A stretch of 64,000 nucleotides of DNA from Bacteroidales bacterium (GCA_017455205.1 JAFTBM010000035.1:2933-66932); one strand, 5' to 3'. Positions 5,315-62,878 are shown, numbered from the stretch's first letter. A program made the numbers and translations. The notes: a model not told the origin generated them from the letters alone.

Positions 5315-5645
5315 CATTGCCAATCAGCCGGGTCATTGGCGGGCAAGTGGTGGGTAAGTTCCTTGTCCATTGCATGTTAGTCGGATGGCGGCTGGGTGGC
5401 GGACATAATGAAGAAAGACGCTGCAAGGCGTTTTATCTGCGGCTATCGAATCTCGCAAATTCGTAACCTACCGCGCGATAAAACAAGGCCAGCGCCTATT
5501 GGTATAAAGTATACAGCTCTTGTATCTCTTCATAGCGTGGGCTCGGCATTGTTTGTCCTCGGTAGGAAGGTATGCGAGAACCTCGATAGCAGGATAGATG
5601 ATGGAACATACGTCCCGCGCTTTCTTTATTTTGCCATGAGATGGA

Positions 5646-19332: not shown

Positions 19333-19508
19333 TCTCATTTTCAGTTATTTGGCAATTTGGTAGGAGGGGTGGTATAAATGGCTGACAGACAGCCTCTTGT
19401 AGGCATCCCCTTCTTCCCCTCTTCTTCCCTTCTTCTTCTCCCCTTTTTCCCCTCCTTTTCTCTGGAAGAAGAGGGGAGGTAGGGAGGCGGAAGGGAAAGG
19501 GTAAAAGA
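19333..19508 (+). repeat. Dispersed element, copy A: conserved about 70-nt head, 58-nt pure pyrimidine tract, then a complementary purine-rich tract
   Basis: Pyrimidine-only run at 19406-19463, purine-rich run at 19464-19508. 19403-19426 is the exact reverse complement of 46515-46538, and the flanking head is collinear with 46539-46610. Confidence 0.85.
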
Positions 19509-20604: not shown

Positions 20605-20730
20605 GGGGGAATTGAGAATTGAGAATTGAAAATTGAGAATCGGGAATTGCGAATTAGTAAGAATTGGGAATTGAGAATTAGAGGGGGTGGCTCTGCTAAT
20701 TCTCAATTCCTGATTCTCAATTCTCAGCGC
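20605..20730. repeat. 7-mer word array AATTGAG x about 10 followed by about 4 inverted units; fills the whole clpP-GT4 intergenic space
   Basis: Units read at 20610, 20617, 20624, 20631, 20638, 20645, 20652, 20662, 20669 and 20676. The inverted arm CTAATTCTCAATTCCTGATTCTCAATTCTCAG lies at 20696-20727. Confidence 0.9.
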
Positions 20731-26452: not shown

Positions 26453-26485
26453 GCAAAAAAAGTTGAAACCAGAGTTGCCATCCCC

Positions 26486-26561
26486 AATTCTCAATTTTCA
26501 ATTCTCAATTTTCACTTCCCATTTTCCCCAATTCTCAATTCTCAATTTTCAATTCTCAATT
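26486..26561. repeat. 7-mer word array AATT(C/T)TC x about 10; same word family as 20605-20730 in the opposite orientation
   Basis: Units at 26486, 26493, 26500, 26507, (26514, 26521 degenerate), 26530, 26537, 26544 and 26551. Preceded by GCCATCCCC. Confidence 0.9.
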
Positions 26562-26568
26562 AGGACTT

Positions 26569-26676
26569 GGTCCGTGTCAGGTCCGTGTCAACTCCGTGTT
26601 AGGTCCGTGTCACCTCCGACTCGAGTCGGACTTAACACGAACCAATCACGAACCAAGCACGGACTAAACACGAGCC
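26569..26676. repeat. 11-mer word palindrome: GGTCCGTGTCA-type x4, 16-bp perfect palindromic core, inverted degenerate words x4
   Basis: Left words at 26569, 26580, 26591 and 26602. Core TCCGACTCGAGTCGGA at 26615-26630. Right words TTAACACGAACC / AATCACGAACC / AAGCACGGAC / TAAACACGAGCC at 26632-26676. Confidence 0.9.
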
Positions 26677-26883
26677 AAATCCCTACGGGCGATACCCGCA
26701 ATGGCGACGGGGATGGGGAAGAGGAAAGTGGCACGAGAAGGCAGCGATTAGGCACGGGACGGGGGGAGAACCACAGGGTGCGCAACTGATTTCTTCTTTT
26801 CAGAGGTGGGGCTTGCCGCATCGCACTACGGCGATAGAACAAAATTTTTCAGAGGTGGAAAGGCGATATTCAGGATTTTTGCG

Positions 26884-31145: not shown

Positions 31146-31227
31146 TTGTGCCTGCACGGGTGGGTACAATGGCCTATAGATGAATTGCAATGAAATGAAA
31201 CACAGCGATATTAAAAACATTTGCGAT

Positions 31228-34200: not shown

Positions 34201-37200
34201 AATTTCGCCTTGAGTCTGCAGACTTCCACGCCGAGCAGTAATCAGTTGGGGAACAATGTGTACTACTCGGCGGGGAGTACGCTCAACCGCGTTGGGGCTG
34301 TATCTTATTCGAGCCTTGACGCGTGGCAGTCGGCGGTGACGCTGGATGGGAACTCGCTGTCGCTCGACCCAGTGTTTCTTAATACCGAGTTGGTGGACTT
34401 GCGTACCTACAACCGTTTCATCAAAGGAAAAGGAACGCCGATTAGTGGGGTAGCGAGCGATATGTTTGGAACAGCCCGAAGTTCGTCCAGTCCATGCCCT
34501 GGGGCATTTGAGTATGCCTCGCTGCAGTATGATTTCGAGGTGGATGCGTTGGTGAGTCCAGTGGCAGATACGTGCCAAATGCCAGCCACGGTGGCCTTGA
34601 CGGTGCGACTACGCAACAACGGGATTAGGAGCTACGCGATAGGCACTGGGGATACGCTATGGATTTCGTGCCAAATGAATGGGGGGGAGGTGCGGAAGGT
34701 AGCTGTTGGCCATTCAGTGCCGAGTGAGGATACAATAACGGTTAGTACGGGACTGACCTATCAGCTGCCTGCCAACGGCATTTATGATTCAGTGTATGTG
34801 GTGAAAGTGTGGGTAGCGTATGCTGGTGATCCCAATCAGACCAACGACACAAGCCTTTTCACTGTGGTGAGTCGCTATCATCAAGAGGCAGCTGATGACT
34901 TGGCGATGACCATTCCGTATGCAAGCCAAGCGACGGTGGTGCCGAGTTCGGGAGTGGCGCAGTGGAGCGTTTATGCCAATGGGTCGGCTCCCAAGAAGAG
35001 GTCGCAGCTGTTTTGGTATCGCAGCATGTCGGACGTTGTACCTTTTTATCAGGGAGATACGTTGCAGACCGATGTCTTAAGGCAGGACACACACTACTAC
35101 TTTAAGCAGCGGAGGTTGCTTCCAGTGGTGAGACTAACGCAGGTGCAGATAAAAGGTACGGGGGCAGTGGGTCTGACGAGTCCTATGCCATCGTGGATGG
35201 GGAGTTCGACCCTGTTGGCGGTGCAGCTGACCAATGTGGGCGATGATACCGCCTACTTGGCAGGCGATACGTTGAAGATGGTGTCGGATGTGGCAGCTAT
35301 TAACAACCAGTATATCCGTTTTGGCGATGTGAGGATAGCACCAGGAAAAGCGATGGTGGTGCAGTTTGCAGCTGGTACAAGCACGAATGCCTCGAAGACG
35401 GTATACACAGGGCTGAACATGAGCCAGTCGCCCACAGCCTCAACCAAGTTCGGACTTATCTATAAGCATGAGAGCGAGGTGGAGGATGCGGTAGCAATCA
35501 ATAGTATTGAGTCAAATGCTCGTTGGACGACGATGGCAGTGCCGAGTTATGTGTGGAGTGGTAGTGGGGTAAATGTGTCTCCCAGTACGACGGGAGGGAT
35601 AGTGAGACAGGCGTTTAATGGGATGGCCTCGGACTGGCGGATGGCCACGACGGCACAGCCGATGATGATAGATACGATAGCCGAAGGATGGTTGATGTAT
35701 GTCGATAATGGTTGTCCAACAGAGTTCGCAACAGCCACGGTCAATATGGCCACTCACCCAGCAGTGGATATCTCTCTGCAGGCGGGTAACCTGGCTTCGG
35801 GGTGCAATTTGGGCAATGAAGAGGTCTCGGTTATTGTGCACAACTACGGACAGCAGGCGGCCACAGGTGTGCAGTTACATTACACAGCTGGTGGACCTGT
35901 CGTGAGTGAGACGATGAGTGGAAGTGTGGCATCGGGAGCCGATGTAACCTTTACTTTCACGCAACGGCTCAACATGGCGGTGGCACAGGATTCGCTCTTC
36001 AGGGTAGTTATATGGGCGACAAAGCTTTCGGCAGATTCGGAACAAAGCAATGACACGACGGTAGTGCAGTCGCTTGCACGCTATACGCCATCGGCTCCAG
36101 TATTAGCCTCAACGATGTCGGTTCCCTATGGCACAAGTGCAACGGTTAGCCCTACGCCGTTGCCAAGAGCAACAATGATATGGTACGATAGTTTGGACAA
36201 TCCGATTGATACTGCCAACAACTATGTATCTGCCCCGCTCTATGAAACCACGCTCCTCGGAGTGAGTTATCTAATGGCCGATAGTAGCGGTGGACAGATA
36301 GGTTCGGCTGCAACACGTACCACTGCCACTGCCTACCCCTCCCCCTACCAACCTTACAATGCGATGGCCAAGCAGCAGTATATTTATTCGGCCAGCGAGT
36401 TGAGGACATTGGGAATTGAGGCTGGAAACATCACGGCAGTGGCGTTCCATCTCGACTCGATATTGGGTAGTGTACAATCGCTGACGTTCAGCAAGTATTA
36501 TATCTCTATGGGGCTTACCGATGACACGCTGTTCTCATCAATGACGGCATGGAAGGCCACACAGGTGGTTTACAACCGTAGCTCGTTCAGCGTCAGCAGG
36601 AGTGATATTGGTCAGTGGGTCAGTCATAAGCTGGATACACCTTTTGTTTGGGATGGCATGTCGAATTTAGTGGTACAGGTGGTGCATGAAAACACGTCGG
36701 CTGTTACCACTGGAGTGCAGACCACATATAGCAGCAAAAGTAACAGCTGCCTCACCTATGGGTCAAATAGTTCGCTCTCTCCCTCGGCTCTGGACTATAC
36801 TGGGTCGGGAAGGATGAGTGGCAACAGGCCGAATATACACATAGAGCAGGTGCTTTATAGTTGCCAAAGCCCGAAGGTATATACCACTATCACCCTCTCT
36901 GGCCAGCCTAATGTAGACGCTCGTATCACCTGGCCCGATGGCTACGACACGGTAACGTACACTTCGTGTAGCAATATCGCACTCAACGTAAAGCTCCAGA
37001 ACCTCGGCTTGCAGGCATTCAACAGCGTAAATCTTCACTACACTATAGACGGGACAACGGTGGGTTCAACGACCATCAACAGCGTGCTTGCACGCGGAAA
37101 TGCTACTACCGTGCAACTATTCAGTCGCCCCTTGAAGCCTGGCAGGCATTATGTGGTGGCATGGGTCGCCTTGAGCGGCGATGAAGAAACGAGCAACGAC

Positions 37201-40200
37201 ACGATAGTGCTGCCGCTGACGGTGAAGTTCTGTGCAGGGTCATACACCATTGCGCAGACTGCGAGTGCCGATTATCGTAGCTTTGGCGAGGCTGTGGACA
37301 GTCTGGTGCAGGTAGGTATAGCGGGAAGTGTGGTGTTCAATGTGGCACAAGGAACCTATACCGAGCAGGTAAGCCTCGGAGCGATTGGTGGAACATCGCA
37401 AGCACAGACTGTTACGTTTAGGGGTGCCTCCGTCAGTAGCACAACACTGAAAGCGGCTACCTCCCAGAGTATAAACTACGTGCTTAATATTGATGGTGCG
37501 TCAAACGTGGTATGGGAAGGCATGACCATCACTTCGCGTCCACAGTCTGGCAACTTTGGCAATGTGTTGGTCATTCAGAATGCAAGCCATATTACACTGC
37601 AGAACAATATGGTCAAGGTGAGCGGTAATATCGACAACGACAACGCATCCTGCATCGTGCTGCAAGGTAATGTGGACGGATTAACGCTGCAAGGCAATAC
37701 ACTCGACAGCGGCTACTATTCGCTCCGCGAAAAGGGTACTGCCTATAACTACACCAACATAACCATTCAAGGAAACACGTTTACTAACTTCCGCTATGGA
37801 GCAGTGGCCTTACAAGGAGCAACCAACGTCAGCATTGCGGCCAATAGCATGCTATCAGGCCATACGACAATCAACCGAGGCTTGGTTGGCATAGGATTGA
37901 CGCAGGTGGATGGTACATTGAGCATCAGCAAAAACACCATCTATTTGGCCGATGATATGAATGGTGGCAAGCAGGGTATTAATCTCAACAAGGTGAAATG
38001 CACTGCTTCGAGCAGCGGGACGGTGGTGAATAATATGATAAGTGCTTGTGGCACAGGTGCCACGGCGTTGAGCAACCCTGGAGGTATTGTAGCCACCGAT
38101 TGCGAATACTTGAACATCATCTACAACAGCATCCTGACGCGGACTGGAAGCAGTACCATTTCGCGTGGCATGCTGCTCACGCAATCGGCTACTGACACCT
38201 CGCATCACCTCACTGTGATGAACAACGTGATTGTCAATCGCAGTTCGTATGCCTACTACGTCTCGCCCTCTACCGTAGTGGCTGCCTCCGACTACAACAA
38301 CTATGTCTCCCCCACGGGACTCCCGATTGCCTACTGGAACGCTGACCAATACACCTTGACCAACCTGCAGTCGGCCAACGGGCGCGATGGCAGCTCAATG
38401 GCAGAGGAAGTCTACTTCGTCAACGACACCAACTTGCACCTTTCGATGACCAACCTCTCTGGCAAGGCACAGTATAATCCCGATGTCATTGACGATATTG
38501 ATGGCAACGCACGACCGCAGCTCCCTCCCCCCACTATCGGTGCTCATGAAGTCAGTCTGACAGCGCACGATATGGCTCTGGTACGTGTGATTTCACCAGT
38601 GATGCCAGTCAGCATAGCCCGACCGATCAATATCGAGAGCGACTCTATCCTTGTGAAGGCACTCTTCTATAATAATGGTAGCTCCACCGAGAGCAATGCC
38701 TACTGGTATGCCTACGTGGAAGGCTATGGTGCTGCAACTCGCTCGGCCAACCGCTCGCTCGGTACGATGCTGCCGACGCAGTCCAAGACCGACTCGGTGT
38801 GGCTCTATTCTCCACTCGGTGTGGTAGATTCGCAGAGTGTAAAGATAGTACTGGTCGCCCCAACCGACGACGATGCATCCAACAACACGGCCTCTGCTCC
38901 ATTCTATATTGCCCCAGCGTTCAACCTCGGTGCGGTAAGTATTGCGACCTCCAAGACGGGTTGCGATATGCAGCAAACCCAAGTGTTGCTGACGCTCTCC
39001 AACGATGGAGCCAAGGATATTCCCACAGGCTTCACCATTGAGGTCGGCTACTCCGCCCAAGCCTATTACCCCACCTACGATGCATCCAACCCCTCGGCCT
39101 ATCGGCAGGCAGTCTCTACTATGCCTGGCTCTATTAGGGAGAACATTACCCTTACCAACCCATTCCAACGGGGTACTTCGCAGACTTTCACCTTCTCCGC
39201 CCCAGCCAATTTCTACCCAACCGACACCGCTATAAACCTAAAAATTATGCTCCGTGGCTGGTGCAACCTGACTTACGACCTCGTCCCCACCAACGACTCT
39301 GTATGGTCGGATGTGATCAATTCCTACTATTCTCCACGTCCAGCTGTGGGGCACGACACCACGCTTGCCTACGCCACTTGGGGCGAGGTAACGGCATCTC
39401 AACCCGACTATCGACCCATTCAGTGGTATCGCGACACCACGGCCTCCCCCTTCTACAATATGAGCAACTACTTCAGCTCCTGTCGCTGGTCCAACACTCC
39501 CATCTTCACCCACGACTCTACCTACTACCTTCGCAGCGTCAGCGACCTCGGTTGCCTCAGTGCATTCACCGAGGTGCATGTCCATGTGGCTGCGCAGCAG
39601 ACCAACGATGTGGGTGTGGCCACAGTGCTTGCTCCGATGGGTCGGCGCGTCTACACGGAGAATGACACCGTCCGCGTGCGTATCACCAACTACGGGACGC
39701 AGTCGCAACGCTCCTTCCCTGTAACCTACGAGGTGCGCGGTGGCAACAATCAAGCACCTTTCCAGGTCGTAACCGAGACCTGTGAGGTCTCCATCGCACC
39801 CAACCAGTCCTATGACTTTAAGTTCGATTCGCTCATCTCCTTCACCGACCCCTTGGAGGGCAAGAACTACTACCTCCGCGTATGGACCGACCTCGCGAAT
39901 GATGCCACTCGTCGCAACGATACTATCCGTTGGACGAACAGCCTCCGCCCCGCAGCAACCAACAACACCACCGTTGACTATCCGTTTGTTACCCTGCCCG
40001 AGACCAACTACGGTATTCGTGCCAACATCCCCAACGATGCCAGTGTGGATGTTGTCCGTGTATCGTTCAACGAGATTGACTTCGAGATGCCCCCGTTGGG
40101 GAGGTCGTTCACCAATATGGCTGGCTTCACCTCGCCCGAATACCCCGTGCTGCGGTTACCGCGCGGCTCGCAGGACACGCTGACCATTGCAATCCAGAAC

Positions 40201-43026
40201 CCCGCCGACCCCGAGGCTACGCCCAATGGTATGGTGGCAGCCTATATCGACTTCGACCGTTCTGGCACTTTCCTTGATGCGGGCGAAGAGGTTCTGCCTG
40301 CCACCCGCGTCAATAGCCGTGAGCCTATTAAAGTGGGGATAACCATCCCGCAGTCGGCAGCCAACGGCCACATGCGTCTGCGTGTGGTGGCCTCCAACGA
40401 GGGGAAAGCCCCCATTCCCACCCTTGCCTCCAGCGATGGCCATATCGTGGACTTCTTGATTTTTATCGATCCCGAACCTGCGTTCACCGACCTCGCCCTA
40501 ACGCAAGTCGCATCGCCCTATAGCAGCTTGCTCCGCACCGACAGCAACCTCGCTGTTGCTTTCCGTATGAGTAATAAGGGCACCTCTACCATCAATAATG
40601 CTACATTCCATTATTCCTACTATTTCCGCGACCTCGACAGCACCTACAACGGCACTTTCGACTGGTCTGGCACCCTCTCCACGGGGCGTAGCACCTTGGT
40701 GAAGCTCCCCCCCGTCCTCATTCCCTGCGGCACAGCCGACTTCAAAGTCTGGCATTCCACCCCCTCCGATGCCAACACCTCCAACGACACCTTGGCCCAC
40801 GAATACCACCGCCCGTATGTGGTTACCCTCGTCTACAACGATAATTTCAACGGTGAAGACCTATGGTATGCCCCGACGGGTCGCACCAAGTACACTCGCA
40901 ATCAGTGGCAACGCGGTATCACCACCAAGCCGACATTCTCCTCTGCTCATTCCTATCCCAATGCTTGGGCCACCAATCTGACCACAGATATCACCGTAGG
41001 CACTTGGGGCAATATGAGCTACCTCTATAGCCCCATTATCAACATCTCCCAAATACGTGCCGACTCGGTGGCCTTCTATCTCTGCCGTATGTTCGATACC
41101 ATCAGCGTCAGCTATCTCCGTCTGGAATATTTGGACTATACTGGCACTTGGCGCAATATGCGCGACGAGGCCGACAGCACCTGGTATACCAACGAGCAGC
41201 GCACAGCCTTCGACAATGTGGGGCAAAACGCTCATCTTAACAGCAGTGGCAAAGCCACTTATCAGCGTTTTGCGTTCAGCACCTCTTCGACAGGTATCGG
41301 CGATGAATTCAACGAGATGCTTCAACTCCGCTTTGTCTACGTCGCAGCCCAAGGCTCCAACGAGAATTCTACCTGCGGCAGTGGCTGTGCTATCGACGAC
41401 TTTTTGGTTACTCGTGCCCGCCGTCCTATCGATGTGGGAGCTTTCAAGGTAACCTATCCCACCGCACCCCGAGTAGGCGATATCGTCTATCCTCAAGTGG
41501 CTGTGAAAAACTACGGCCTCGACACCGTCTACACCTTCCAAATGGGCTACACAACCTATGAAAACTATATCCCCACCATCACTACCGTCCAATGCGCCAT
41601 ACCTCCCGACTCTGTCGATACATTTGCCTTCCCCAACCCCATTGTGATTACATCTGATTTCCCCGACACTTTCGCCATCACCGCCTTTACCGCTCTAGTG
41701 GAAGATATATATGTGGAGAACGACACCGTCCGTACAAAATTCCGCCTCTCTCCACTCGACCACGACATCAGTGTCGTAGAGTTCGTCTCGCCTCGCCCAA
41801 CCGTCATCGGGGGCGACTCCGTGGCCGTTACGCTCCGCATCCGCAACTTCGGCATAGATAGCATCTCTCGTGCCACGCTCTCTTTCATATTCAACACTAA
41901 CACTCGTTGCGATGAGGAGGTCGATTTCACACAGCTCATAGGCCGCCCGTTGGCCACCTTCGAGTATTTCAACTACACCTTCTCCACCAAGGTGCGTGTG
42001 CCGATGGGAATGATGAACTTCGTCGGTATCGCCAAGTGCGATGCCAACGATTACCTTGGCAACGACACCATCCGCCTGCGTGTGTCGGGTATTTCCTCCG
42101 TAACCGATGTCGCAGCCTCCTCCCTTATCATCGACTCCTCGAGCTTCAACTCTATGCGGGTACAGCTGGTCATCGACAACCGTGGAGCCCGCGGCGCCAA
42201 CAACTTTGAGGTAGGCTTCTGGTACGACAACGACACTTCCACCATCCATCGCGAGACCTTCCATCGCGACACTCCCATCCCAGCCCTCACCTCCTACACC
42301 CACGCTTTCAATATCGAACTCCCCACGCGCCAAATCCCCTATAGCCAAGTGGTAGGATTTGTGCATATCGACAACGACCACGACCCCTCCAACGACACCA
42401 CCTACTCCCGCTCCACCCAATACGTCGACCTTGAAGTGCTCAGTGTGCTCGTCGAAGAAAACGCAAACCCCGACTGTCGGGTCTTCCTTCGCCTGCGCAA
42501 CATTGGCAACCTCGCTGTGGAGAACCGTATTGTCCCGCTGCGAGCCGTGGTCAATGGCGTTGAACTTGCCAACAACACCACGCGCAGCTTTGCCCCTGGC
42601 GACATCGTCAATGTGGAATTCCCCACCACCATCCCCAAAAACGACCTTCGCCGTTATTCGGGAAGTGGCTGGCTGCAATCCTTCCCCATGGACAACAACT
42701 CCTCCAACAACCAGACCTCTGTGGTTCGCGTGGTGAACTATATGGAGGGCATACCACTGGTTGATGCTGGCCTCTTCACCCTCGGGCAGAACTATCCCAA
42801 CCCAGCCGCCCAGTCCACCACCATTCCATTCTCGCTCCCCTCCGATGCCGAGGTGCACTTCTTTGTGATGGATGCACTGGGCAAACGGGTCGTCAGCCAG
42901 CACTTCTTTGCTCCTGCGGGCGAGAACTCTTTGCAGCTCGACCTCCGTCCGCTCGCCTCAGGAGTCTACTACTATGGTCTCGAGGTGGATGGTGAACGTC
43001 GTATGCTTAAGTTAATCCACCGTTAA
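31228..43026 (+). CDS. Giant T9SS cargo/adhesin-like protein (3,932 aa): choice-of-anchor-J/MAM-like N-domain, at least 12 CARDB-like beta-sandwich modules, two parallel beta-helix regions, type-A CTD
   Basis: Start taken at MKRALVLMGAMLTLMAGNVRAQ. YYQGFESG N-domain. Repeated modules end in an N-D-T motif (e.g. PNQTNDT, SEQSNDT, EETSNDT, ATRRNDT, HDPSNDT). NN(M/I)I/GN beta-helix repeats at about aa 700-1000 and 2030-2400. The C-terminus NYPNPAAQSTTIPFSL...GVYYYGLEVDGERRMLKLIHR is a CTD. Confidence 0.9.
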   Translation: MKRALVLMGAMLTLMAGNVRAQVYEMYYQGFESGQSATYSVTTSGSEADSVLVRTGSRSLRLLQNKTADVELVLDTIDFSQNVALRYVALEFDHVCNLPTNGSRGVGEIYVKRAGQSDDSYVQLSGSEYNRDGDTYSDPFTMLLAFNRASYDEWDVAAVDNSSWKHERFDIDNILGGASTTAERKLIIKFKLDRRTVSGDVPADGGWWLDNVRVRASQSKIVSPKLDMVVYPDGELLPSSRGAKVALDAYTSVAEGIDGDSVYVVYRVGSSGVEHRVAMASQGAAQRHDGVAATRFACRIPFYGYDTLMRFYCVVKDATTNANEVTFPKSGGQWVEYRCVRGEAQTNSTIPAALTGTSTSTAFPFPKYIDNRSEWIYDSALMASAGYGPGGITAMRFVLGGAVQAQTRTNLQIRMKNEGTDYTVSGKQNYVSGYMHVVWDSTLSIAAADAGSEVVIRLQDTFFYAGKDVVMQVIYDGTGSADPEAASVQTIATGSNKLSKVRNGKSYSAGVNTYTDEEFLEPSSVERVRPVVVMTAVENQVLVHDMGVAAIVFPNETSPIVSQPAQLQVQLKNYGEDAVQAIRISYAIDGTIPTGYYDWTGNLAGQASATVTIATGVTLAAGYHTIRAWVEDTLTSSGARYRDHEPLNDTAAAEFIVCAGPLRGVKTVGGTGSDYATLHELLFDIGSCGVNDSVIVRLAPGYYEPFVMPAISGISATHYIVFEPANGSVVFYADTTVGNATAIADLTSGGYVRFRNVGFVRRSGALSYMAELGVSSTDCRFEGCWFTDSLSGQSSDMRIAAMVFTGGANNVVVNGCRFVGGGVGVDIQGISASSRATGCSVSKSYFKGQYTDAISVRNATGTKVVGNEMYDVESSASAVVIVYQCNGATEISANKIYTSHGASGLMVSGVEGTSAQHALVANNMIVCADDGAATTAQTPLNVLQGAWLDVVYNAVKHNAATRSNLPAVVFGGIQTTNSRLMNNIIACYDGVNFALSLQTSTPSSNQLGNNVYYSAGSTLNRVGAVSYSSLDAWQSAVTLDGNSLSLDPVFLNTELVDLRTYNRFIKGKGTPISGVASDMFGTARSSSSPCPGAFEYASLQYDFEVDALVSPVADTCQMPATVALTVRLRNNGIRSYAIGTGDTLWISCQMNGGEVRKVAVGHSVPSEDTITVSTGLTYQLPANGIYDSVYVVKVWVAYAGDPNQTNDTSLFTVVSRYHQEAADDLAMTIPYASQATVVPSSGVAQWSVYANGSAPKKRSQLFWYRSMSDVVPFYQGDTLQTDVLRQDTHYYFKQRRLLPVVRLTQVQIKGTGAVGLTSPMPSWMGSSTLLAVQLTNVGDDTAYLAGDTLKMVSDVAAINNQYIRFGDVRIAPGKAMVVQFAAGTSTNASKTVYTGLNMSQSPTASTKFGLIYKHESEVEDAVAINSIESNARWTTMAVPSYVWSGSGVNVSPSTTGGIVRQAFNGMASDWRMATTAQPMMIDTIAEGWLMYVDNGCPTEFATATVNMATHPAVDISLQAGNLASGCNLGNEEVSVIVHNYGQQAATGVQLHYTAGGPVVSETMSGSVASGADVTFTFTQRLNMAVAQDSLFRVVIWATKLSADSEQSNDTTVVQSLARYTPSAPVLASTMSVPYGTSATVSPTPLPRATMIWYDSLDNPIDTANNYVSAPLYETTLLGVSYLMADSSGGQIGSAATRTTATAYPSPYQPYNAMAKQQYIYSASELRTLGIEAGNITAVAFHLDSILGSVQSLTFSKYYISMGLTDDTLFSSMTAWKATQVVYNRSSFSVSRSDIGQWVSHKLDTPFVWDGMSNLVVQVVHENTSAVTTGVQTTYSSKSNSCLTYGSNSSLSPSALDYTGSGRMSGNRPNIHIEQVLYSCQSPKVYTTITLSGQPNVDARITWPDGYDTVTYTSCSNIALNVKLQNLGLQAFNSVNLHYTIDGTTVGSTTINSVLARGNATTVQLFSRPLKPGRHYVVAWVALSGDEETSNDTIVLPLTVKFCAGSYTIAQTASADYRSFGEAVDSLVQVGIAGSVVFNVAQGTYTEQVSLGAIGGTSQAQTVTFRGASVSSTTLKAATSQSINYVLNIDGASNVVWEGMTITSRPQSGNFGNVLVIQNASHITLQNNMVKVSGNIDNDNASCIVLQGNVDGLTLQGNTLDSGYYSLREKGTAYNYTNITIQGNTFTNFRYGAVALQGATNVSIAANSMLSGHTTINRGLVGIGLTQVDGTLSISKNTIYLADDMNGGKQGINLNKVKCTASSSGTVVNNMISACGTGATALSNPGGIVATDCEYLNIIYNSILTRTGSSTISRGMLLTQSATDTSHHLTVMNNVIVNRSSYAYYVSPSTVVAASDYNNYVSPTGLPIAYWNADQYTLTNLQSANGRDGSSMAEEVYFVNDTNLHLSMTNLSGKAQYNPDVIDDIDGNARPQLPPPTIGAHEVSLTAHDMALVRVISPVMPVSIARPINIESDSILVKALFYNNGSSTESNAYWYAYVEGYGAATRSANRSLGTMLPTQSKTDSVWLYSPLGVVDSQSVKIVLVAPTDDDASNNTASAPFYIAPAFNLGAVSIATSKTGCDMQQTQVLLTLSNDGAKDIPTGFTIEVGYSAQAYYPTYDASNPSAYRQAVSTMPGSIRENITLTNPFQRGTSQTFTFSAPANFYPTDTAINLKIMLRGWCNLTYDLVPTNDSVWSDVINSYYSPRPAVGHDTTLAYATWGEVTASQPDYRPIQWYRDTTASPFYNMSNYFSSCRWSNTPIFTHDSTYYLRSVSDLGCLSAFTEVHVHVAAQQTNDVGVATVLAPMGRRVYTENDTVRVRITNYGTQSQRSFPVTYEVRGGNNQAPFQVVTETCEVSIAPNQSYDFKFDSLISFTDPLEGKNYYLRVWTDLANDATRRNDTIRWTNSLRPAATNNTTVDYPFVTLPETNYGIRANIPNDASVDVVRVSFNEIDFEMPPLGRSFTNMAGFTSPEYPVLRLPRGSQDTLTIAIQNPADPEATPNGMVAAYIDFDRSGTFLDAGEEVLPATRVNSREPIKVGITIPQSAANGHMRLRVVASNEGKAPIPTLASSDGHIVDFLIFIDPEPAFTDLALTQVASPYSSLLRTDSNLAVAFRMSNKGTSTINNATFHYSYYFRDLDSTYNGTFDWSGTLSTGRSTLVKLPPVLIPCGTADFKVWHSTPSDANTSNDTLAHEYHRPYVVTLVYNDNFNGEDLWYAPTGRTKYTRNQWQRGITTKPTFSSAHSYPNAWATNLTTDITVGTWGNMSYLYSPIINISQIRADSVAFYLCRMFDTISVSYLRLEYLDYTGTWRNMRDEADSTWYTNEQRTAFDNVGQNAHLNSSGKATYQRFAFSTSSTGIGDEFNEMLQLRFVYVAAQGSNENSTCGSGCAIDDFLVTRARRPIDVGAFKVTYPTAPRVGDIVYPQVAVKNYGLDTVYTFQMGYTTYENYIPTITTVQCAIPPDSVDTFAFPNPIVITSDFPDTFAITAFTALVEDIYVENDTVRTKFRLSPLDHDISVVEFVSPRPTVIGGDSVAVTLRIRNFGIDSISRATLSFIFNTNTRCDEEVDFTQLIGRPLATFEYFNYTFSTKVRVPMGMMNFVGIAKCDANDYLGNDTIRLRVSGISSVTDVAASSLIIDSSSFNSMRVQLVIDNRGARGANNFEVGFWYDNDTSTIHRETFHRDTPIPALTSYTHAFNIELPTRQIPYSQVVGFVHIDNDHDPSNDTTYSRSTQYVDLEVLSVLVEENANPDCRVFLRLRNIGNLAVENRIVPLRAVVNGVELANNTTRSFAPGDIVNVEFPTTIPKNDLRRYSGSGWLQSFPMDNNSSNNQTSVVRVVNYMEGIPLVDAGLFTLGQNYPNPAAQSTTIPFSLPSDAEVHFFVMDALGKRVVSQHFFAPAGENSLQLDLRPLASGVYYYGLEVDGERRMLKLIHR

Positions 43027-43103: not shown

Positions 43104-44462
43104 ATGCTGCAACGTTTCGCCGACTATATTAGGCTCCATGGCCTCATCGCCGAAGGCGAAAGAACCCTCCTCGCCGTCAGCGGCGGACGCGATTCCGTCT
43201 GCCTCGCCCACCTCGCCCACCAGCTCCACCTTCCCTTCGCCATTGCCCACTGCAACTTCCACCTCCGCCCCTCCGACTGCGATCGCGACCAGGAATTCGT
43301 CCGCAGCCTCGCCCAGTCTCTCCATGTCCCCTTCTTCACCACCGATTTCGACACCCACGCTTATGCCCAAGCCCAAGGCTACAGCCTCGAACAGGCAGCT
43401 CGCCTTCTGCGCTACGCCTACTTCGCCCACCTCTGCCAGTCCGAACACTACTCCCGCCTCGCCACAGCCCACCACCTCGACGACTCCATCGAGACTTTCT
43501 TCCTCAACCTCTTCCGAGGCACTGGCATAGCAGGTCTACACGGCATCCTCCCCCTCTCCCATCTCACCCTCCCACCCACCGACACCGCTGTCGCCGACGC
43601 TCCGCCCATCAGTCTCACCGTAGTGCACCCTATGCTCTGCTTCTCCCGCGCCGAAATCGATGCCTACCTCGCACAGCATCAATTAGCCTATGTGGACGAC
43701 AGCACCAATTTCGAACCCGAGGTGCAGCGCAACCGCATCCGTCTCCAGCTGATGCCTCTCCTGCGCGAGCTTTACCCCTCGGTCGATACTACTATGCAGG
43801 CCAACATCCATCGGCTGCATGAGGTAGAGCAGGTCTATCGGTTGCATATCGAAGACCTTCGTCGCAAGCTCTGCCATCGTGTCGCCCCCCGTCTTCCTTG
43901 GCTCTCCATGCCCATCGATGCGTTCCCCCTGACCAGCCTCGCGACCCTCTCCCCACGCAGCACCCTCCTCTTCGAACTCTTGCGTCCCTATGGCTTCAAT
44001 GCCTCCGTGGTGGCCAATATCGAAGCCTCTCTCCCTTCCCCCCAATCGGGTAGCCAATTCTGCTCGCCAACCCACCGTGCCGCCATTGACCGCGACCAGC
44101 TCCTCGTTGCACCCATTCCCCCCCCCACCGCTCCCACCCTCACCATCCGCGAAACCACTCTCCCCTCCTCCCCCCGCACCGATGCCTGCCAGATCTACGT
44201 CGCCCCCACCAGCCTCCGTCTGCCACTGCGTCTGCGCCCCTGGCATCCAGCCGACCGCTTCTGCCCCTTCGGCATGAGCGGAAGCCGACTGGTCAGCGAC
44301 TTCCTGAAGGATGCAAAGCTCAACGCCCTCGAGAAGCCGCATGTCCAACTGCTCGTTGATGCCAGCGATAGGGTGGTCTGGGTTGTCGGCCTGCGAGCCG
44401 ACAACCGCTTCCGTGTGCATCAAGCAGGCGATGCCTGCTGGCTCGTCAGCGTATCGCAATAA
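43104..44462 (+). CDS. tilS: tRNA(Ile)-lysidine synthetase
   Basis: PP-loop LLAVSGGRDSVCL, AHHLDD and a TilS C-terminal domain. 452 aa. Confidence 0.9.
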   Translation: MLQRFADYIRLHGLIAEGERTLLAVSGGRDSVCLAHLAHQLHLPFAIAHCNFHLRPSDCDRDQEFVRSLAQSLHVPFFTTDFDTHAYAQAQGYSLEQAARLLRYAYFAHLCQSEHYSRLATAHHLDDSIETFFLNLFRGTGIAGLHGILPLSHLTLPPTDTAVADAPPISLTVVHPMLCFSRAEIDAYLAQHQLAYVDDSTNFEPEVQRNRIRLQLMPLLRELYPSVDTTMQANIHRLHEVEQVYRLHIEDLRRKLCHRVAPRLPWLSMPIDAFPLTSLATLSPRSTLLFELLRPYGFNASVVANIEASLPSPQSGSQFCSPTHRAAIDRDQLLVAPIPPPTAPTLTIRETTLPSSPRTDACQIYVAPTSLRLPLRLRPWHPADRFCPFGMSGSRLVSDFLKDAKLNALEKPHVQLLVDASDRVVWVVGLRADNRFRVHQAGDACWLVSVSQ

Positions 44463-45714
44463 AACTCTTCACCGCCAGCAGCCGGTCGCCACGGTCGGCA
44501 GGCGTGTGCTGATAGACATAGACCGTGTAGCGGTTGCTGGTCTCGCTATGGTCGCCTTCGAGCTGTGCCGTCTTCGACTCCCACTGCGAATACTGCCCGT
44601 TGGCATAGAGCAGCTGGTAGGAATAATAACCCTGCTTCAAGAAAAGGCGTAGCGTGTAGGCCTTGATGGTGGGATTGTATTGCATCATCGAGGTCGAATC
44701 CATCTTCCAGTCGGTGATTGCACCCACCACATGCACGTTGCCATCCATATAAGGCTGCTGCATCGGCAGGCTGAAGTTCACCCACACGTAGTCCGCCTCC
44801 AGCCGAGGATTTTCCCTGTCCCAGATATTCACCTTCATCCCCCCGTTGAGCACCGTCTCGTTGAGGTAGTGCTTCCGCGAACGGTCATCCTCGGGATTAA
44901 GCACCACAAACTGCTCCCCACCATAGTTCTCCACGCTCGACACATTATAGCCCGTCCCCCGCAGGTTGCTGCAGTCAAAATAGCGAAACGTGTTGCCCCC
45001 ATCGAAGATATTGCACTGTCGGTTGGCAAACAGCACCGCCTGGCCTTCGTAGCCGCTAAACTCCAGCAGCCGCATGTTATCCAGCCTACCATTCTGCTGC
45101 ACCGCCACCGTCAGGTACTCGGGCCGCTGGTCGGTCGCCACCGCCACATCCACCTCCTGCCGTCGCCCCACACCGATGCCGTCGTAGGGGCGCGTATTGG
45201 TCGCCCTCACCGTGGTCTTCTGCTCGCTTACGCAAAAACGGCGTGTCAGCAGCACCCCGCTCTTGCCGAGGTCTTCCTCGCTGCTGATGGTCAGCTCGTA
45301 GTTGCCCGAGTGCGTAAACGCAGCGTAGCGGTCGGGCAAGAGGCACCGATAGTGGACATACTCCACCGTGGTGGTAAACGAGAACTCGAAATCCTCTATC
45401 GTCCCCTCGGCAAACCCCGTCATAAACTCCTCCGGCTGCAAGTCGTCGGGCACCCAGCAGCGGTCGCAGTGGCGAATGCTCCAATGCAACCTCTCCGATC
45501 GTGTACCCATCACGTCGAACTCCACCACCAGCCGCCCCCTCGCCCCGAGGGTGAGCATCGGCACTGGCAGCGCCTTCTGCGGATTGTCGCCCGTGGTGCT
45601 GTTGAACATCACCACCGTCCGCACATCCTTCCGCCAAATGGAATCCACTGCAACCCTTGCACTTACTCCCCAGCTTGCCACCACGGCAAGCACTATTGTC
45701 ATCATCTTTTTCAT
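44446..45714 (-). CDS. DUF5103-family protein (T9SS SprA-plug-like)
   Basis: Signal peptide. The pattern ...L.VEFDVMG......L.WSIRHCDRCWVPDDL...EF..GF......FEFS..T.V.Y.HY matches the DUF5103 N-terminal consensus as I recall it. Family recognition only. Confidence 0.65.
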   Translation of the reverse strand: MKKMMTIVLAVVASWGVSARVAVDSIWRKDVRTVVMFNSTTGDNPQKALPVPMLTLGARGRLVVEFDVMGTRSERLHWSIRHCDRCWVPDDLQPEEFMTGFAEGTIEDFEFSFTTTVEYVHYRCLLPDRYAAFTHSGNYELTISSEEDLGKSGVLLTRRFCVSEQKTTVRATNTRPYDGIGVGRRQEVDVAVATDQRPEYLTVAVQQNGRLDNMRLLEFSGYEGQAVLFANRQCNIFDGGNTFRYFDCSNLRGTGYNVSSVENYGGEQFVVLNPEDDRSRKHYLNETVLNGGMKVNIWDRENPRLEADYVWVNFSLPMQQPYMDGNVHVVGAITDWKMDSTSMMQYNPTIKAYTLRLFLKQGYYSYQLLYANGQYSQWESKTAQLEGDHSETSNRYTVYVYQHTPADRGDRLLAVKSFIAIR

Positions 45715-46463: not shown

Positions 46464-46610
46464 CTTCCCCTTCTTCCAGGGTAAATGTTAATAAGAAGGG
46501 GGTAAGAAGGGGGTAAGAAGAGGGGAAGAAGGGGATGCTTACAGGTGCCTGATTATGTGCATTTTAGGCCGCCTTGCCCTACATTTCGCCAAAACGCTGA
46601 AAATGAGCGA
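46464..46610 (-). repeat. Dispersed element, copy B (inverted relative to copy A): short pyrimidine arm, loop, GTAAGAAGGGG-type purine words, conserved head
   Basis: CTTCCCCTTCTTCC at 46464-46477. AAGAAGGGGGTAAGAAGGGGGTAAGAAGAGGGGAAGAAGGGGATGC at 46492-46538. 46539-46610 is collinear with the reverse complement of 19333-19402. Confidence 0.85.
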
Positions 46611-54942: not shown

Positions 54943-55464
54943 ATGATAAACTACAAAGAACGCCTCTCCTCCATCCGCGCCTTCGTCTTCGACTTCGACG
55001 GCGTCATGACCAACGGCGACGTATGGGTCTACGCCGACCGCCAAACCGTCCGCTGCGGCAACATCAAGGACGGCTTTGCCATGCAATACGCCGTCAAAAA
55101 AGGCTACCTCGTGGCCCTCATCAGCGGAGCTACCTCGGCCAGCATCGACAACCGCATGGCCATGCTCGGCGTCAGCCACTGCTACACCGGCTGCGCCGAC
55201 AAGCTGCCCGTCTACGAGCGCTTCCTCCAAGAGCATGGCCTTGCCGACAGCCAGGTACTCTGCATGGGCGACGACCTGCCCGACTACCCCCTCCTCCGCC
55301 GTGCCGGCGTGGCCACATGCCCCGCCGATGCCGCCACCGAAATCAAAGCCATCGCACACTACATCTCGCCCCTCCCTGGCGGCAGAGGCTGCGTGCGCGA
55401 CGTCATCGAACAGACCCTCCGCCTCCAAGGGGCGTGGTTCCACCCCGAAGCCGTAGTATGGTAG
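54943..55464 (+). CDS. kdsC: 3-deoxy-D-manno-octulosonate 8-phosphate phosphatase (HAD-IIIA, KdsC family)
   Basis: FVFDFDGVMTNG, IKDGFA, ALISGA, GDDLPD and PADA motifs. The open frame upstream of 54943 is a P/S/T-rich shadow. Confidence 0.8.
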   Translation: MINYKERLSSIRAFVFDFDGVMTNGDVWVYADRQTVRCGNIKDGFAMQYAVKKGYLVALISGATSASIDNRMAMLGVSHCYTGCADKLPVYERFLQEHGLADSQVLCMGDDLPDYPLLRRAGVATCPADAATEIKAIAHYISPLPGGRGCVRDVIEQTLRLQGAWFHPEAVVW

Positions 55465-56270
55465 CCCCCCGTCCGCACCTCCTCGCCCTCGCCTGCCTCC
55501 TCACGGTAGGCCGCCTTGCCGCTCAAAACTTCTCCCCCAGCGACACCCTCACCCAGTACCCCCACTACGGCACCTACTACCACGACCGCTTCGTGGGTCG
55601 CAAGACAGCCTCTGGCGAAATCTTCGACCAAAACAAATTCACCGCCGCCCACTGGAAAATCAAGCTCGGCACCCTCGTCCTCGTCACCAACCGCAACACC
55701 GGCCTCCAAGTCATCGTCAAAATCAACGACCGCTGCCCCAAACACGGTGTCCTCGACCTCACCCACCGTGCCGCCACCGCTATCGGCATCCGTGGCTGCC
55801 AACCCGTCACCGTGCGCATCATCCCCCCCTCCTACGAAGCCCGCTGGCACGCCCAAGAACCCCTCTTCGACTCCGTGAAAGTCGCCCCCCAGCGCAACCC
55901 CTCCTCCCCAGCAGCACCTAAAACACCCCCCACCGACACCACCACTGCCGCCCCCACCACTTCCCCCGCCCCTCAAGCACCCAACGCCCACCCAACGCCC
56001 ACCATGCCCGCCCACAAAACCACCACCACCACCCACCACCAACGCTGCTGCGCCATCCAACTCGGCACTGCCCAAAACCACGCCGAAGCCTACGAAAAAA
56101 TCCACCTCCTGCCAGAATACTACCAATCCTCCGTCTCTGTCGAAACCATCCCCGAAACCGACCTCCTCCTCCTCACACTCGACGTCAGCCTTCCCGCCGA
56201 CAAAGCCCGTGCCCTAAGCCAAGCACTCCTCCACAACTTCCCCGACAACACCGTCTCCTACTGCGACTAA
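55458..56270 (+). CDS. rlpA: Septal-ring lytic transglycosylase RlpA-family protein (DPBB plus SPOR domains)
   Basis: Start MVAPRPHLLALACLL overlaps the kdsC stop. The DPBB core is GTYYHDRFVGRKTASGEIFDQNKFTAAHWKIKLGTLVLVTN...VIVKINDRCP. A P/T-rich linker and a SPOR-like C-terminus follow. Confidence 0.8.
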   Translation: MVAPRPHLLALACLLTVGRLAAQNFSPSDTLTQYPHYGTYYHDRFVGRKTASGEIFDQNKFTAAHWKIKLGTLVLVTNRNTGLQVIVKINDRCPKHGVLDLTHRAATAIGIRGCQPVTVRIIPPSYEARWHAQEPLFDSVKVAPQRNPSSPAAPKTPPTDTTTAAPTTSPAPQAPNAHPTPTMPAHKTTTTTHHQRCCAIQLGTAQNHAEAYEKIHLLPEYYQSSVSVETIPETDLLLLTLDVSLPADKARALSQALLHNFPDNTVSYCD

Positions 56271-56435
56271 TCCCACCCGCTCGCCTGCGGCCACTCTTCG
56301 TCGGCTCCACGCCCTGAAATCGAATGGCAGACTGTCTTTTGATGAAAAGTCAGCATCGGTGGGCGATTGATTGTGTAAAAACTACACGCATTTTTCTCAT
56401 CAGCAATCCCCTGATATGCAGCCATATCATTGTCC

Positions 56436-56504
56436 GTTCTTCAATAGTTCTTCAATAGTTCTTCAATCGTTCTTCAATAATCGATTGAAGAACGATTGAA
56501 GAAC
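56436..56504 (+). repeat. Tandem-word hairpin: GTTCTTCAAT(A/C) x4, 5-nt loop, inverted word x2 (second copy of the 5033-5101 family)
   Basis: Words at 56436, 56447, 56458 and 56469. Inverted GATTGAAGAAC at 56483 and 56494. The inner two word pairs form an uninterrupted 21-bp helix. Confidence 0.9.
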
Positions 56505-56680
56505 GTTTGTCCACCGATAGGCGAAAAGGCAACCTCGGGGGCAGGGAGAAGAATGCTCATCCGCGGCTGCAATCGAAGTCGCTGCCCGCAGGAATGCTGC
56601 GGTGCTCGGATTTCCTCCCCCGAAAAGAGAGACAGAATGCGAAAAAATAAACTTTTTTTCGGTGATTAAATAAAAATTGT

Positions 56681-56688
56681 TATCTTTG
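56681..56688 (+). promoter_or_regulatory. -7 promoter box TATCTTTG upstream of porP
   Basis: Matches TAnnTTTG followed by CA. Preceded by an A/T-rich UP-like stretch. Confidence 0.5.
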
Positions 56689-56801
56689 CACATCCATTCT
56701 CTACTCGCAAGAAAAGGTATCTTGAGAGGTTGAGGATGCGGTAAGAAGTTAAAACACAGGCCATAGTGTCTATATTGAACAGAAAACCAGTAGCCGTGCG
56801 G

Positions 56802-57809
56802 ATGCCGAAAATAGCCTTATTTTTGGCCTTGATGCTCGTGGTCGAAGCCTATTCGCAGGCACAAATCGAGGGGCAGTATACCCATTTTATGTTCAATAGG
56901 CTTAGCTACAATCCCGCCTACGCTGGCAGTTCGGGAAATATCTCGGCCACGGTGCTCTATCGCAGCCAGTGGTTGGGGTTCGACCTGCAGGCACCAGTGG
57001 CTGGCGGCGAAGCGGGCAGTGCACCGACCGACATGCTCTTCAGCGTCGACCTGCCCGTCAGGTGGCTGCACGGTGGGCTTGGCCTCAATTTCACCTCCGA
57101 GAAGCTTGGCTACCACAGCAACAACGTCATCGAGCTCGACTATGCCTTCCGCCTCTACTGGGGAGCGGGGACGCTCTCGGCGGCTGTGGGTGCCGAGTTG
57201 CAGAGCTGCCAGTTCAAGACCACGAACCTGCTCGGCATGAGCGACCTCAGTGGTGACCCCGCCAACCCAGTGGCCACCTCGTCGGACCCCCTGCTCACGG
57301 GTGGCGAGCTTTCCGACTTCCTGATCGATGTGGCCACGGGTCTCTACTACCAGGTGCCAGGCATCTACTACGTGGGTCTCTCGGTCAAGAACCTCCTCGG
57401 AGCCAAAAGCGACCAGCTCAACCTCACCAACGCACGCACGCTCTACCTCATGGGTGGCTACGAATACACCTTCCCCTACAATCCCTCGCTCAAGTTCAAA
57501 CCCTCGGCCTTGGTCAAGACAGCCGACTTCTCGGCCATCCAGGCCGATGTGGCCTGCCTGCTCGACTACGAGAACACCCTCTGGGGCGGCGTGGGCTACC
57601 GCTGGGGCGATGCTTTCACCCTCATGGCAGGTCTCAACTTCCTGAAGATTATGCAGGTGGGTGTGGCCTACGACCTGACCACCTCCAAGCTCGGCTTCGG
57701 CGGTGGCCGCAGCCTCGGCTCGGTGGAAGTCTACATGAACCTCGCCTTCCAAATCAACGTCAATAAAAAGAATCCCACCGTCTCGCGCAACACGCTATAT
57801 CTGCGCTAA
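56802..57809 (+). CDS. porP: T9SS membrane protein PorP/SprF family
   Basis: QYTHFMFNRLSYNPAYAGSSG is the family signature. It lies directly upstream of porKLMN as in other Bacteroidota. An alternative GTG start is at 56766. Confidence 0.85.
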   Translation: MPKIALFLALMLVVEAYSQAQIEGQYTHFMFNRLSYNPAYAGSSGNISATVLYRSQWLGFDLQAPVAGGEAGSAPTDMLFSVDLPVRWLHGGLGLNFTSEKLGYHSNNVIELDYAFRLYWGAGTLSAAVGAELQSCQFKTTNLLGMSDLSGDPANPVATSSDPLLTGGELSDFLIDVATGLYYQVPGIYYVGLSVKNLLGAKSDQLNLTNARTLYLMGGYEYTFPYNPSLKFKPSALVKTADFSAIQADVACLLDYENTLWGGVGYRWGDAFTLMAGLNFLKIMQVGVAYDLTTSKLGFGGGRSLGSVEVYMNLAFQINVNKKNPTVSRNTLYLR

Positions 57810-61978: not shown

Positions 61979-62878
61979 ATGAAAAAGGTATTCTTAACAC
62001 TTGCTCTGATGGTTGCAGTTGCATTTGCTTGCAGTGCACAGAGCATCATTGATGCCGACAATGGGCGCAATCCCAATGATTTCTATCAGCGGGGTATTGT
62101 GGTGGGGAAGAAGGCAATGCCTTACCCCTATCTGCGTGAAAGCGATGTGGTGTGGGAGACCACTATATGGCGTGATATTGATTTCAATGAGAGTTTTAAC
62201 CAGTTCTTCTATTTCCCAATAGAGGAGACGAGCGCACAGGGGAGGGTAAGTCTCATCAATTTGATTGTGTCCAAAGCCGAGAGTGGTGAGATTGACATAT
62301 ACGAGGACGATGATATGTCGGCTCCAATAGATTGGGAAGCTGCATGGCGAAATTTGGCTGGAACAGGTCGCACAGTACAAGTAAATGTTTTGGATCCAGA
62401 GACGGGAGCTCCTATGGAGGACGAGGATGGTGAATATGTGATGAAAGATTCTGTTACCACCCCCTCATTTGACAACGCCTCTGCAAAGAAAGTAAGGATC
62501 AAAGAGTTTTGGTATATTGACAAGCAGGATACACGTCAGAAGGTACGCATCGTGGCTCTGCAATTCCAGTTTCTTAAGCCCGCTGCCTCGCAGCAGGCCG
62601 AGGATCAGTTGGCATGGTCGTTCGTCATTCCGATGGATGAGATGAAGGTGCGGCAGATGCTGGTCAATGCCAATGCCTTTGAAGAGAATAATGTGGTGGC
62701 TGAACGCTCCTACGATGATGTCTTCATTGAGCGCTTTTTCGACAGCTACGTGGTACGCGAGTCGAACAAGTATAACCGTGCCATCAGCAGTTACCTCACG
62801 GGTCAGGATGCCATCTTCGAGTCGCAGCAGATAGAGAGCAGGATATTCGATATAGAGTCGGATATGTGGGAGTATTGA
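61979..62878 (+). CDS. porN: T9SS periplasmic ring component PorN/GldN
   Basis: Signal peptide. YLRESDVVWETTIWRDIDFNE matches the GldN signature. It is the last gene of the operon. Confidence 0.9.
   Translation: MKKVFLTLALMVAVAFACSAQSIIDADNGRNPNDFYQRGIVVGKKAMPYPYLRESDVVWETTIWRDIDFNESFNQFFYFPIEETSAQGRVSLINLIVSKAESGEIDIYEDDDMSAPIDWEAAWRNLAGTGRTVQVNVLDPETGAPMEDEDGEYVMKDSVTTPSFDNASAKKVRIKEFWYIDKQDTRQKVRIVALQFQFLKPAASQQAEDQLAWSFVIPMDEMKVRQMLVNANAFEENNVVAERSYDDVFIERFFDSYVVRESNKYNRAISSYLTGQDAIFESQQIESRIFDIESDMWEY

Follow-up and report, generated by a model that had tools for sequence, protein, structure and literature searches.

A tandem-word hairpin between rlpA and porP in a Bacteroidales genome is a lineage-specific spacer occupant and is not specific to T9SS genes

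Several described classes of short repeat come close to the element reported here, a hairpin upstream of porP that we call a tandem-word hairpin, in each arm of which a 10-nt word is repeated in a short tandem series at 11-nt pitch. REP, BIME and REPIN sequences, which are mobilised by RAYT HUH transposases, resemble it in being short, non-coding, extragenic imperfect palindromes that are often found just past stop codons or between cistrons, where they are possible RNA stem barriers, and in forming lineage-specific families with a non-orthologous dispersal and no target-site duplication. REP elements typically number hundreds of copies. One end of a REP or REPIN sequence carries a conserved GTAG or CGTC tag (PMC3733652). 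From the Bacteroidales themselves comes the BrickBuilt MITE of Porphyromonas gingivalis, comparable in that it is strictly intergenic, breaks assemblies and holds an internal tandem repeat that expands and contracts; its 23-nt unit, AGAYCATARTATCCTCTCRTRTG, is accompanied by leader and tail segments and IS5-like terminal inverted repeats, and the whole spans hundreds of nucleotides (PMC4596501). The TAACTGA heptamer arrays (PMC4679880), the cyanobacterial STRR heptamers and the LSSRs are likewise sporadic, lineage-restricted intergenic arrays of 7-11-nt words, in which one word may occur in distantly related taxa. Rho-independent terminators share with our hairpin a stable stem-loop soon after a stop codon. 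Eukaryotic foldback transposons, finally, have inverted arms composed of tandem subrepeats around a small or absent middle, on a kilobase scale and with a transposase known in some; their likeness to tandem-word hairpins is one of architecture only, with no evidence of homology.

The DNA analysed here (the window) is a stretch of 64,000 nucleotides from a Bacteroidales bacterium (GCA_017455205.1, JAFTBM010000035.1:2933-66932), in which the hairpin upstream of porP occupies positions 56436-56504 on the + strand. A word search places four exact copies of GTTCTTCAAT in the forward arm (56436-56478; word starts 56436, 56447, 56458 and 56469), set at 11-nt pitch by spacers a, a and c and written in probe form as (GTTCTTCAATN)4. 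They are followed by the loop AATCG (56479-56483) and by an inverted arm (56484-56504) of two ATTGAAGAAC words (56484-56493 and 56495-56504) with spacer g. In the RNA fold, 56458-56478 pairs with 56484-56504 in an uninterrupted, perfect 21-bp helix (-33.3 kcal/mol, z = -7.8). The first word lies 165 nt past the stop of the rlpA-like gene (56270), and the TATCTTTG box of porP (56681-56688) lies 177 nt beyond the final word. A preliminary description of this DNA had given the forward words, the loop, the inner helix and the distance to the box as we find them; it had also counted two inverted words, rightly, but had started them at 56483 and 56494, one nucleotide short of their actual starts at 56484 and 56495. 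The array is flanked by the imperfect pair ATTGTCC / TTTGTCC, and this is the sole copy with such a pair among the 14 loci that we compared.

A twin of the hairpin is found on the + strand at 5033-5101, with four forward words (starts 5033, 5044, 5055 and 5066; spacers c, c and c), the loop AACCT and two inverted words (5081 and 5092; spacer t). Its fold has a single C/T mismatch, at the spacer, and an energy of -28.1 kcal/mol (z = -6.7), and the twin sits 206 nt 5' of a TATCTTTG box at 5307-5314. All 12 exact GTTCTTCAAT words of the window fall within these two sites, and matches with at most one mismatch number 17, compared to 2.4 +/- 1.4 in shuffled sequence, where none of 100 shuffles reached 17. 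The common layout of four forward and two inverted words bears out the earlier view that the two sites are one kind of element whose flanks do not align, flank similarity between the copies being not significant (z = 1.9 and 2.7). Both copies recur unchanged in independent metagenome assemblies of the same strain and are therefore not assembly artefacts; among these assemblies, which represent essentially one strain, no variation in array length was seen. Short open reading frames that begin at an ATG 5' of each array run through it (4973-5077 and 56416-56499, encoding MHLQSAPTLHGPRNYRISWAVLQSFFNRSSIVLQ and M-QPYHCPFFNSSSIVLQSFFNNRLKND, each closed by a stop codon), and these reading frames are probably fortuitous.

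Set against the systems introduced above, the tandem-word hairpin departs from each in some respect. Unlike REP and REPIN sequences, it has arms made of 10-nt word arrays in unequal copy numbers, its word is common to several species and its apparent copy number is low; no GTAG or CGTC tag was found in the flanks of the 14 loci, and no RAYT (Y1/HUH transposase) in the window ORFs scanned. Compared to BrickBuilt, the repeat unit is 11 nt (or 7 nt) and of unrelated sequence, the arrays themselves are the inverted arms, and both the leader/tail pair and the separate terminal repeat are missing. Membership of the MITEs in general was considered as well: the arms are inverted, but there is no consistent target-site duplication. 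TAACTGA, STRR and LSSR arrays are direct repeats placed mostly just 5' of start codons, whereas in the tandem-word hairpin a forward array faces an inverted one across a loop of about 5 nt. Rho-independent terminators differ in that the word hairpin has no U-tract, an AT-rich stem and extra unpaired words, coexists with canonical terminators and also occurs between divergent gene starts; the combination of GC-rich stem, short loop and U-tract that marks an intrinsic terminator is not present at the porP copy, the 3' tail of which reads GTTTGTCC. Two further candidates were rejected, namely a DNA uptake sequence (DUS/USS), as 12 of the 12 exact words are at two loci and one-mismatch singles are at chance level, and a CRISPR array, where repeats of 24-40 nt and unique spacers would be expected in place of an 11-nt period with a single spacer base. 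Rfam gave no match at the gathering threshold, and permissive searching returned only generic miRNA-precursor long-hairpin models, far below threshold. In the literature on the word, on Bacteroidetes terminators, on Bacteroidales intergenic repeats and on REPIN/RAYT we found no description of this architecture.

The gene context raises the question of a link to the T9SS. Upstream of the porP copy lies an RlpA-like (DPBB_1) gene (55458-56270, + strand; Pfam, and called on the identical contig L016), and downstream lies porP (56802-57809, + strand; Pfam), followed by porK, porL, porM and porN to position 62878. The twin precedes genes for an OMP beta-barrel protein, a Por_Secre_tail protein and very large proteins (Pfam). 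Both copies are on the same strand as the T9SS-related operon 3' of them and about 180-205 nt from its TATCTTTG box, and it had been proposed at the outset that they form a cis-element linking the T9SS machinery with a cargo operon. The words would then be binding sites for a PorX/SigP-type regulator co-regulating porPKLMN and the cargo operon, and three further observations speak for this reading. By our own reckoning the 11-nt pitch would put the words on one face of B-DNA; in an 85% relative, the porP contig (L073) and the cargo-region contig (L076) end in one common, though different, word family; and in a distant relative a direct array containing ATTGAAGA (L077:5601-5632) is found some 65 nt 5' of the promoter of the orthologous cargo-type operon. 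The window as a whole weighs against it. T9SS genes, comprising cargo genes at 7055, 16584, 31180-43026 and 49744, a plug gene (44446-45714) and porPKLMN, take up about half of the window length, so that adjacency would arise fairly often by chance and two matches out of two are weak evidence. At least four other T9SS units in the 64 kb are without the word, which is absent from the cargo loci at 16584, 31180 and 49744 and from the plug gene; a look at other T9SS genes or cargo operons of the genome had been suggested, and those of the window give a negative result. The cargo operon is moreover 3.4 kb away from the L076 array, with two unrelated genes in between, and contigs tend to break in repeats. 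Within the cargo cluster, a 1868-aa ORF contains tandem repeats of 156 and 312 nt (12319-13143, about five copies, 75% identity), which are likely repeated protein domains.

Related genomes were compared as well, as had been suggested earlier. Relatives were reached via PorP homologues (L070, 81%; L071 and L072, 72%; L073, 85%, on a cut contig). L071 and L072 keep the synteny (S66 peptidase, DUF7033, hydrolase, RlpA-like, PorP); in both, the rlpA stop directly abuts a conserved porP block, the intergenic region is 130-160 nt, and the hairpin is absent from the rlpA-porP spacer. L070 has a hairpin at the equivalent place, with four forward and four inverted words and a fold of -59 kcal/mol, and its words have drifted to GTTCTACAAT, GTATTACAAT and GTTCGACAAT, one ancestral ATTGAAGAAC word being left. 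The drift is co-ordinated between the arms, T6 having become A in the forward words and A having become T in the inverted ones. In L073 the spacer contains an 11-nt array of a different word, ATACGGAG, after a TCGGACTT half-site that resembles the apex of another hairpin of the window, at 26616. Common to all five sequences is the porP promoter block (56642-56693, + strand), which consists of an A-run, TAAAC, a T-run and, after about 20 nt, TTATCTTTGCACAT; we take TAnnTTTG in this block to be the -7 box, by the published Bacteroidetes promoter consensus. The hairpin itself belongs to the stretch before this block (56271-56641, + strand), a lineage-specific spacer to which nothing corresponds in the 72%-identity relatives and which can be aligned with the 81% and 85% relatives at the hairpin only.

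Given this pattern of presence, absence and word change, the hairpin is a lineage-specific occupant of the rlpA-porP spacer, outside the conserved promoter, with a dyad symmetry that is more lasting than its sequence. What porP conserves as a control region is the block of A-run, T-run and TTATCTTTGCACAT, which stands right after rlpA in relatives. Against a T9SS regulator, the array is absent 5' of porP in the 72% relatives, replaced by a different word in the 85% relative and changed in word but not in dyad symmetry at the orthologous L070 site, and it lies outside the promoter block. Together with the neighbours of copies in other genomes (see below), 10 of 11 of which flank non-T9SS genes, these observations lead us to consider control by a PorX/SigP-type regulator highly improbable. 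The hairpin is not T9SS-specific, the linking cis-element proposed earlier finds no support, and one should neither read the hairpin as a PorX/SigP-type operator nor use it as evidence that porPKLMN and the cargo cluster are co-regulated. The porP block is nearly invariant in the five species, and since it directly follows the rlpA stop in two of them, read-through from rlpA into porP may be the ancestral state. At the other end of the operon, relatives have two tandem GldN/PorN genes after porM (L070:6871-7740, L071:14673-15527 and L072:11409-12266), where the window genome has a single PorN (61979-62878) and then proS on the opposite strand.

We searched 185,579 species-representative genomes and the JGI metagenomes for two perfect adjacent GTTCTTCAAT words, a criterion by which the apparent conservation of the word is in part an ascertainment effect. 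Four MAGs of rumen Bacteroidales (L005, L008, L012 and L014) and seven more metagenome contigs (L028, the same as L052, and L030, L031, L034, L045, L055 and L059) carry the hairpin, giving at least 11 independent Bacteroidales loci beyond the window, mostly from rumen MAGs and metagenome contigs. The remaining matches were coincidences in coding sequence or direct arrays in unrelated low-GC contigs, and BLAST against plasmids and phages and a scan of viral contigs returned no copy of the word hairpin. Forward words number 2-11 and inverted words 1-4 per hairpin; the loop is 5 nt in nearly all loci but of different sequence each time, and the spacer base is a, c, t or g. What recurs over the 14 loci is the word, the 11-nt pitch and the loop of about 5 nt, with spacer base, loop sequence and flanks all varying, in line with the original statement that array and geometry are conserved in place of a duplicated segment. 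Six loci (L005, L012, L031, L034, L045 and L055) form one subfamily with a weak common leader, AAGCC...CCCT.

All copies examined are intergenic. Their neighbours, by ORF calls and Pfam, include PGI, ThiF, an OppC-type permease, UDG, LeuRS, GDH with an alpha/beta-hydrolase, ribonucleotide reductase (RNR), PFOR, EamA with a DRTGG protein, and patatin, and a T9SS cargo gene adjoins just one of the 11 independent copies (L005). The L034 hairpin is located between divergent gene starts, and those of L055 and L030 face a gene start on one side. Elsewhere there are one or two matching contigs per assembly or sample, and in the window two loci in 64 kb. Direct arrays of GTTCTTCAAT or near variants, without hairpin, are seen on contigs from low-GC environmental metagenomes (L026, L032, L035, L043, L048, L061, L042 and L069), the arrays often being built around a GGATAATTCAGTT core; in L048 and L061 the array is just 5' of a putative start codon, an arrangement recalling the TAACTGA-type leader repeats. 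A Methanosarcina chromosome (sp. Mfa9, L011) has at least seven direct ATTGAAGAACG repeats at 7923-7998, the same word again without a hairpin, and these archaeal repeats are presumably unrelated to the Bacteroidales hairpins.

Placement and stability of the copies bear on whether the hairpin is a dedicated 3'-end RNA element, either a factor-independent terminator or a stem that stabilises the mRNA, having evolved to serve the upstream gene and insulating the downstream promoter. Six of 13 loci have the array 19-38 nt past the stop codon of a gene that is transcribed towards it, with the next start codon 150-190 nt further on. Stems are very stable across loci (-33 to -69 kcal/mol, z from -5 to -16), most spacer bases in one arm can pair with those in the other, and compensated changes are present in L070, as described above, and in L030, where CAAT became CGAT in the forward and TTG became TCG in the inverted words. 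At L055 transitions give rise to G-U pairs on the minus strand (-67.4 versus -45.4 kcal/mol), which is the strand where a canonical terminator immediately precedes the hairpin, although this asymmetry of G-U and C-A pairs, as a test of RNA-level selection, is informative at L055 only, there being few loci with a known direction of transcription. On the other hand, there is no U-tract, and no terminator-like site was called in 55800-57000. The canonical minus-strand terminator of L055 immediately adjoins the word hairpin, L005 has a weak terminator-like site 64 nt beyond it, and in L012 a GC hairpin and T-run after it can be recognised by eye, if not called by the scan; at these three loci the word hairpin is therefore not the only 3' signal. 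Some members lie between divergent gene starts, where there is no gene end to serve (L034 and window 26485-26679), the extra unpaired words (four forward versus two inverted, or 11 versus one) have no role in a terminator, and evolution in situ fails to explain one word at unrelated loci of different species. A dedicated 3'-end element is thus, in our view, an unlikely account of the hairpin. Insulation or termination by the porP copy is possible as a side effect, this copy being at most an RNA hairpin barrier without a U-tract.

The recurrence of the word itself points in another direction, towards sites for a DNA-binding protein unconnected with the T9SS, such as a transposase or recombinase that recognises several subterminal repeats, or a protein of the nucleoid or partition type with cooperative binding to direct and inverted repeats. 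Precedents exist in the omega repressor, which binds heptad arrays, in ParR, which binds the 11-bp parC repeats, and in the ends of Tn7 and Mu, which have multiple binding sites. The 10-nt word recurs across species with a variable eleventh base and loop, pitch and loop length are fixed, and direct arrays of the word exist in L026, L043, L048 and L061, which are distant, low-GC contigs of Bacteroidetes-like look. Such a protein would, however, have to accommodate the drift of the word at L070 with arm complementarity kept, and the conservation that it would explain is inflated by the search criterion. At least four unrelated word families in 64 kb, moreover, would need as many proteins, and no candidate for one came to light; we rate binding by a non-T9SS protein of low probability.

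These other families were found with Tandem Repeats Finder, which located arrays or hairpins with further words at four more loci of the window. At 19410-19500, CTTCTTCCCCT words face a purine-rich arm between a convergent T9SS cargo gene and glycosyltransferase gene. At 20609-20726 a heptamer hairpin of about ten GAATTGA units, a loop and about four inverted units (-57.9 kcal/mol, z = -7.5) fills the spacer between the minus-strand clpP and glycosyltransferase genes. The divergent GH43/lepA promoter region (26485-26679) contains about ten CAATTCT units (26485-26561) and then a GGTCCGTGTCA hairpin (26569-26679) with four forward and four inverted words and a CTCGAG apex (-58 kcal/mol, z = -6.6). 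The CTTCTTCCCC family recurs at the fourth locus, 46470-46534, between a gene without known identity and the T9SS plug gene; this copy and the one at 19410 have the leader CYTGTARGCATCCCC in common. Two of these other families have two copies each, so that, with GTTCTTCAAT, three word families are present twice in the window. The GAATTGA array occurs in L034 too, and the families recorded in all are GTTCTTCAAT, GAATTGA, CTTCTTCCCC, GGTCCGTGTCA and ATACGGAG. An apex centred on CTCGAG is seen in hairpins of different families, as CCGACTCGAGTCGG at 26616-26629 of the window and as CTTACTCGAGTAAG at about L080:640-660.

With so many words in play, a purely local origin by slippage and fold-back copying of a pre-existing hairpin, the sharing of words being coincidental, has to be weighed. 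Arrays are homogeneous per locus, with mutated words spread in one arm (three GTTCCTCAAT in L055, two ATAGAAGAAC in L031), many different words exist, and arrays of assorted kinds crowd the long intergenic regions of relatives (L079 and L080). That three word families are doubled in a 64-kb window, and that at least 11 other loci have the exact 10-mer in hairpin form, nevertheless amounts to far too many coincidences, by our own estimate, for some 10^6 possible 10-mers, and this makes independent local origins very unlikely. The same two observations require copy-and-paste or some other sharing between loci. Word-array families populate the intergenic DNA of uncultured ruminant-gut-type Bacteroidales, and we judge it probable, if not strongly so, that the GTTCTTCAAT hairpins are a dispersed, REP/MITE-like family of non-coding extragenic palindromes, the arms of which are slippage-prone word arrays and the dyad symmetry of which is kept.

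For such a dispersed family, copies would reach new intergenic sites by a copy-and-paste route, and the arrays would then grow or shrink by replication slippage in steps of 11 nt. The compensated changes in L070 and L030 demonstrate that arm complementarity is maintained, which may be the result of selection on the hairpin or of templated correction within the palindrome, and concerted evolution within a locus can be seen in L055 and L031, where a single arm has several copies of a mutated word. The porP copy lies within about 370 nt of lineage-specific sequence, an insertion that separates the rlpA-like stop from the conserved porP promoter. Transcription of rlpA into this copy would produce an RNA with the 21-bp stem and two unpaired upstream words, and such a stem might, in the manner of REP elements, impede 3' exonucleases or read-through. 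The hairpin may plausibly serve the upstream gene as an RNA stem in its 3' region; with members located between divergent promoters or beside canonical terminators, this cannot be the only role.

Some of the data sit less easily with dispersal. Scanning of the window ORFs revealed no transposase domains, and the flanks of the 14 loci showed no consistent target-site duplication or terminal motif; against a dispersed element stands also its copy number, which looks low at two loci per 64 kb. Contig ends, in turn, lie repeatedly inside arrays, as expected of repeats or of length-variable sites: contig L074 ends inside the 5033 copy (at window position 5087), and L073:1-45 and L076:1-35, from one sample (SRR18056066), both start in ATACGGAG arrays. 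Such ends point to a family with several copies, or to a polymorphism in length, as the cause of broken assemblies. We put forward, as a tentative and less probable proposal, that tandem-word hairpins form a self-propagating class of intergenic repeat in which families are written or copied in by a dedicated mechanism (for example a HUH-type single-strand transposase or fold-back templating) that preserves word, pitch and dyad symmetry and not the flanks, with families replacing one another at the same site in sister species. The palindromic word arrays of these uncultured Bacteroidales recur across species, turn over fast per site and appear to break short-read assemblies. An understanding of how they spread, and of any effect that they have on the 3' ends of transcripts, might bring to light a new small mobile element or mutational process and would improve MAG assembly and intergenic annotation.

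The site of the twin was likewise compared among relatives. In the 84% relative (L076) the gene upstream is another one and a plain GC hairpin is present, and in the distant relatives L077-L080 the long upstream regions are crowded with other word arrays. L079 is a case in point: within a 1.6-kb intergenic region 5' of the orthologous cargo-type operon, positions 1630-2390 contain at least eight different word arrays as well as long-loop hairpins, as where three words of the GGGACAGT type are separated by about 110 nt of AT-rich sequence from three of the AACTGTCC type. Downstream of this site, a leader of about 330 nt separates the TATCTTTG box from the first ORF of the cargo-type operon (window 5315-5645). 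It is found again at L076:3140-3497, L077:5710-6000, L079:2640-2940 and L080:805-1106, ends in ...CCCGCGCTTTTT and gives no match in Rfam. The leader is kept across relatives though the first ORF is only 47-84% identical, and possible identities for it are a structured cis-regulatory RNA, an attenuator and a small RNA.
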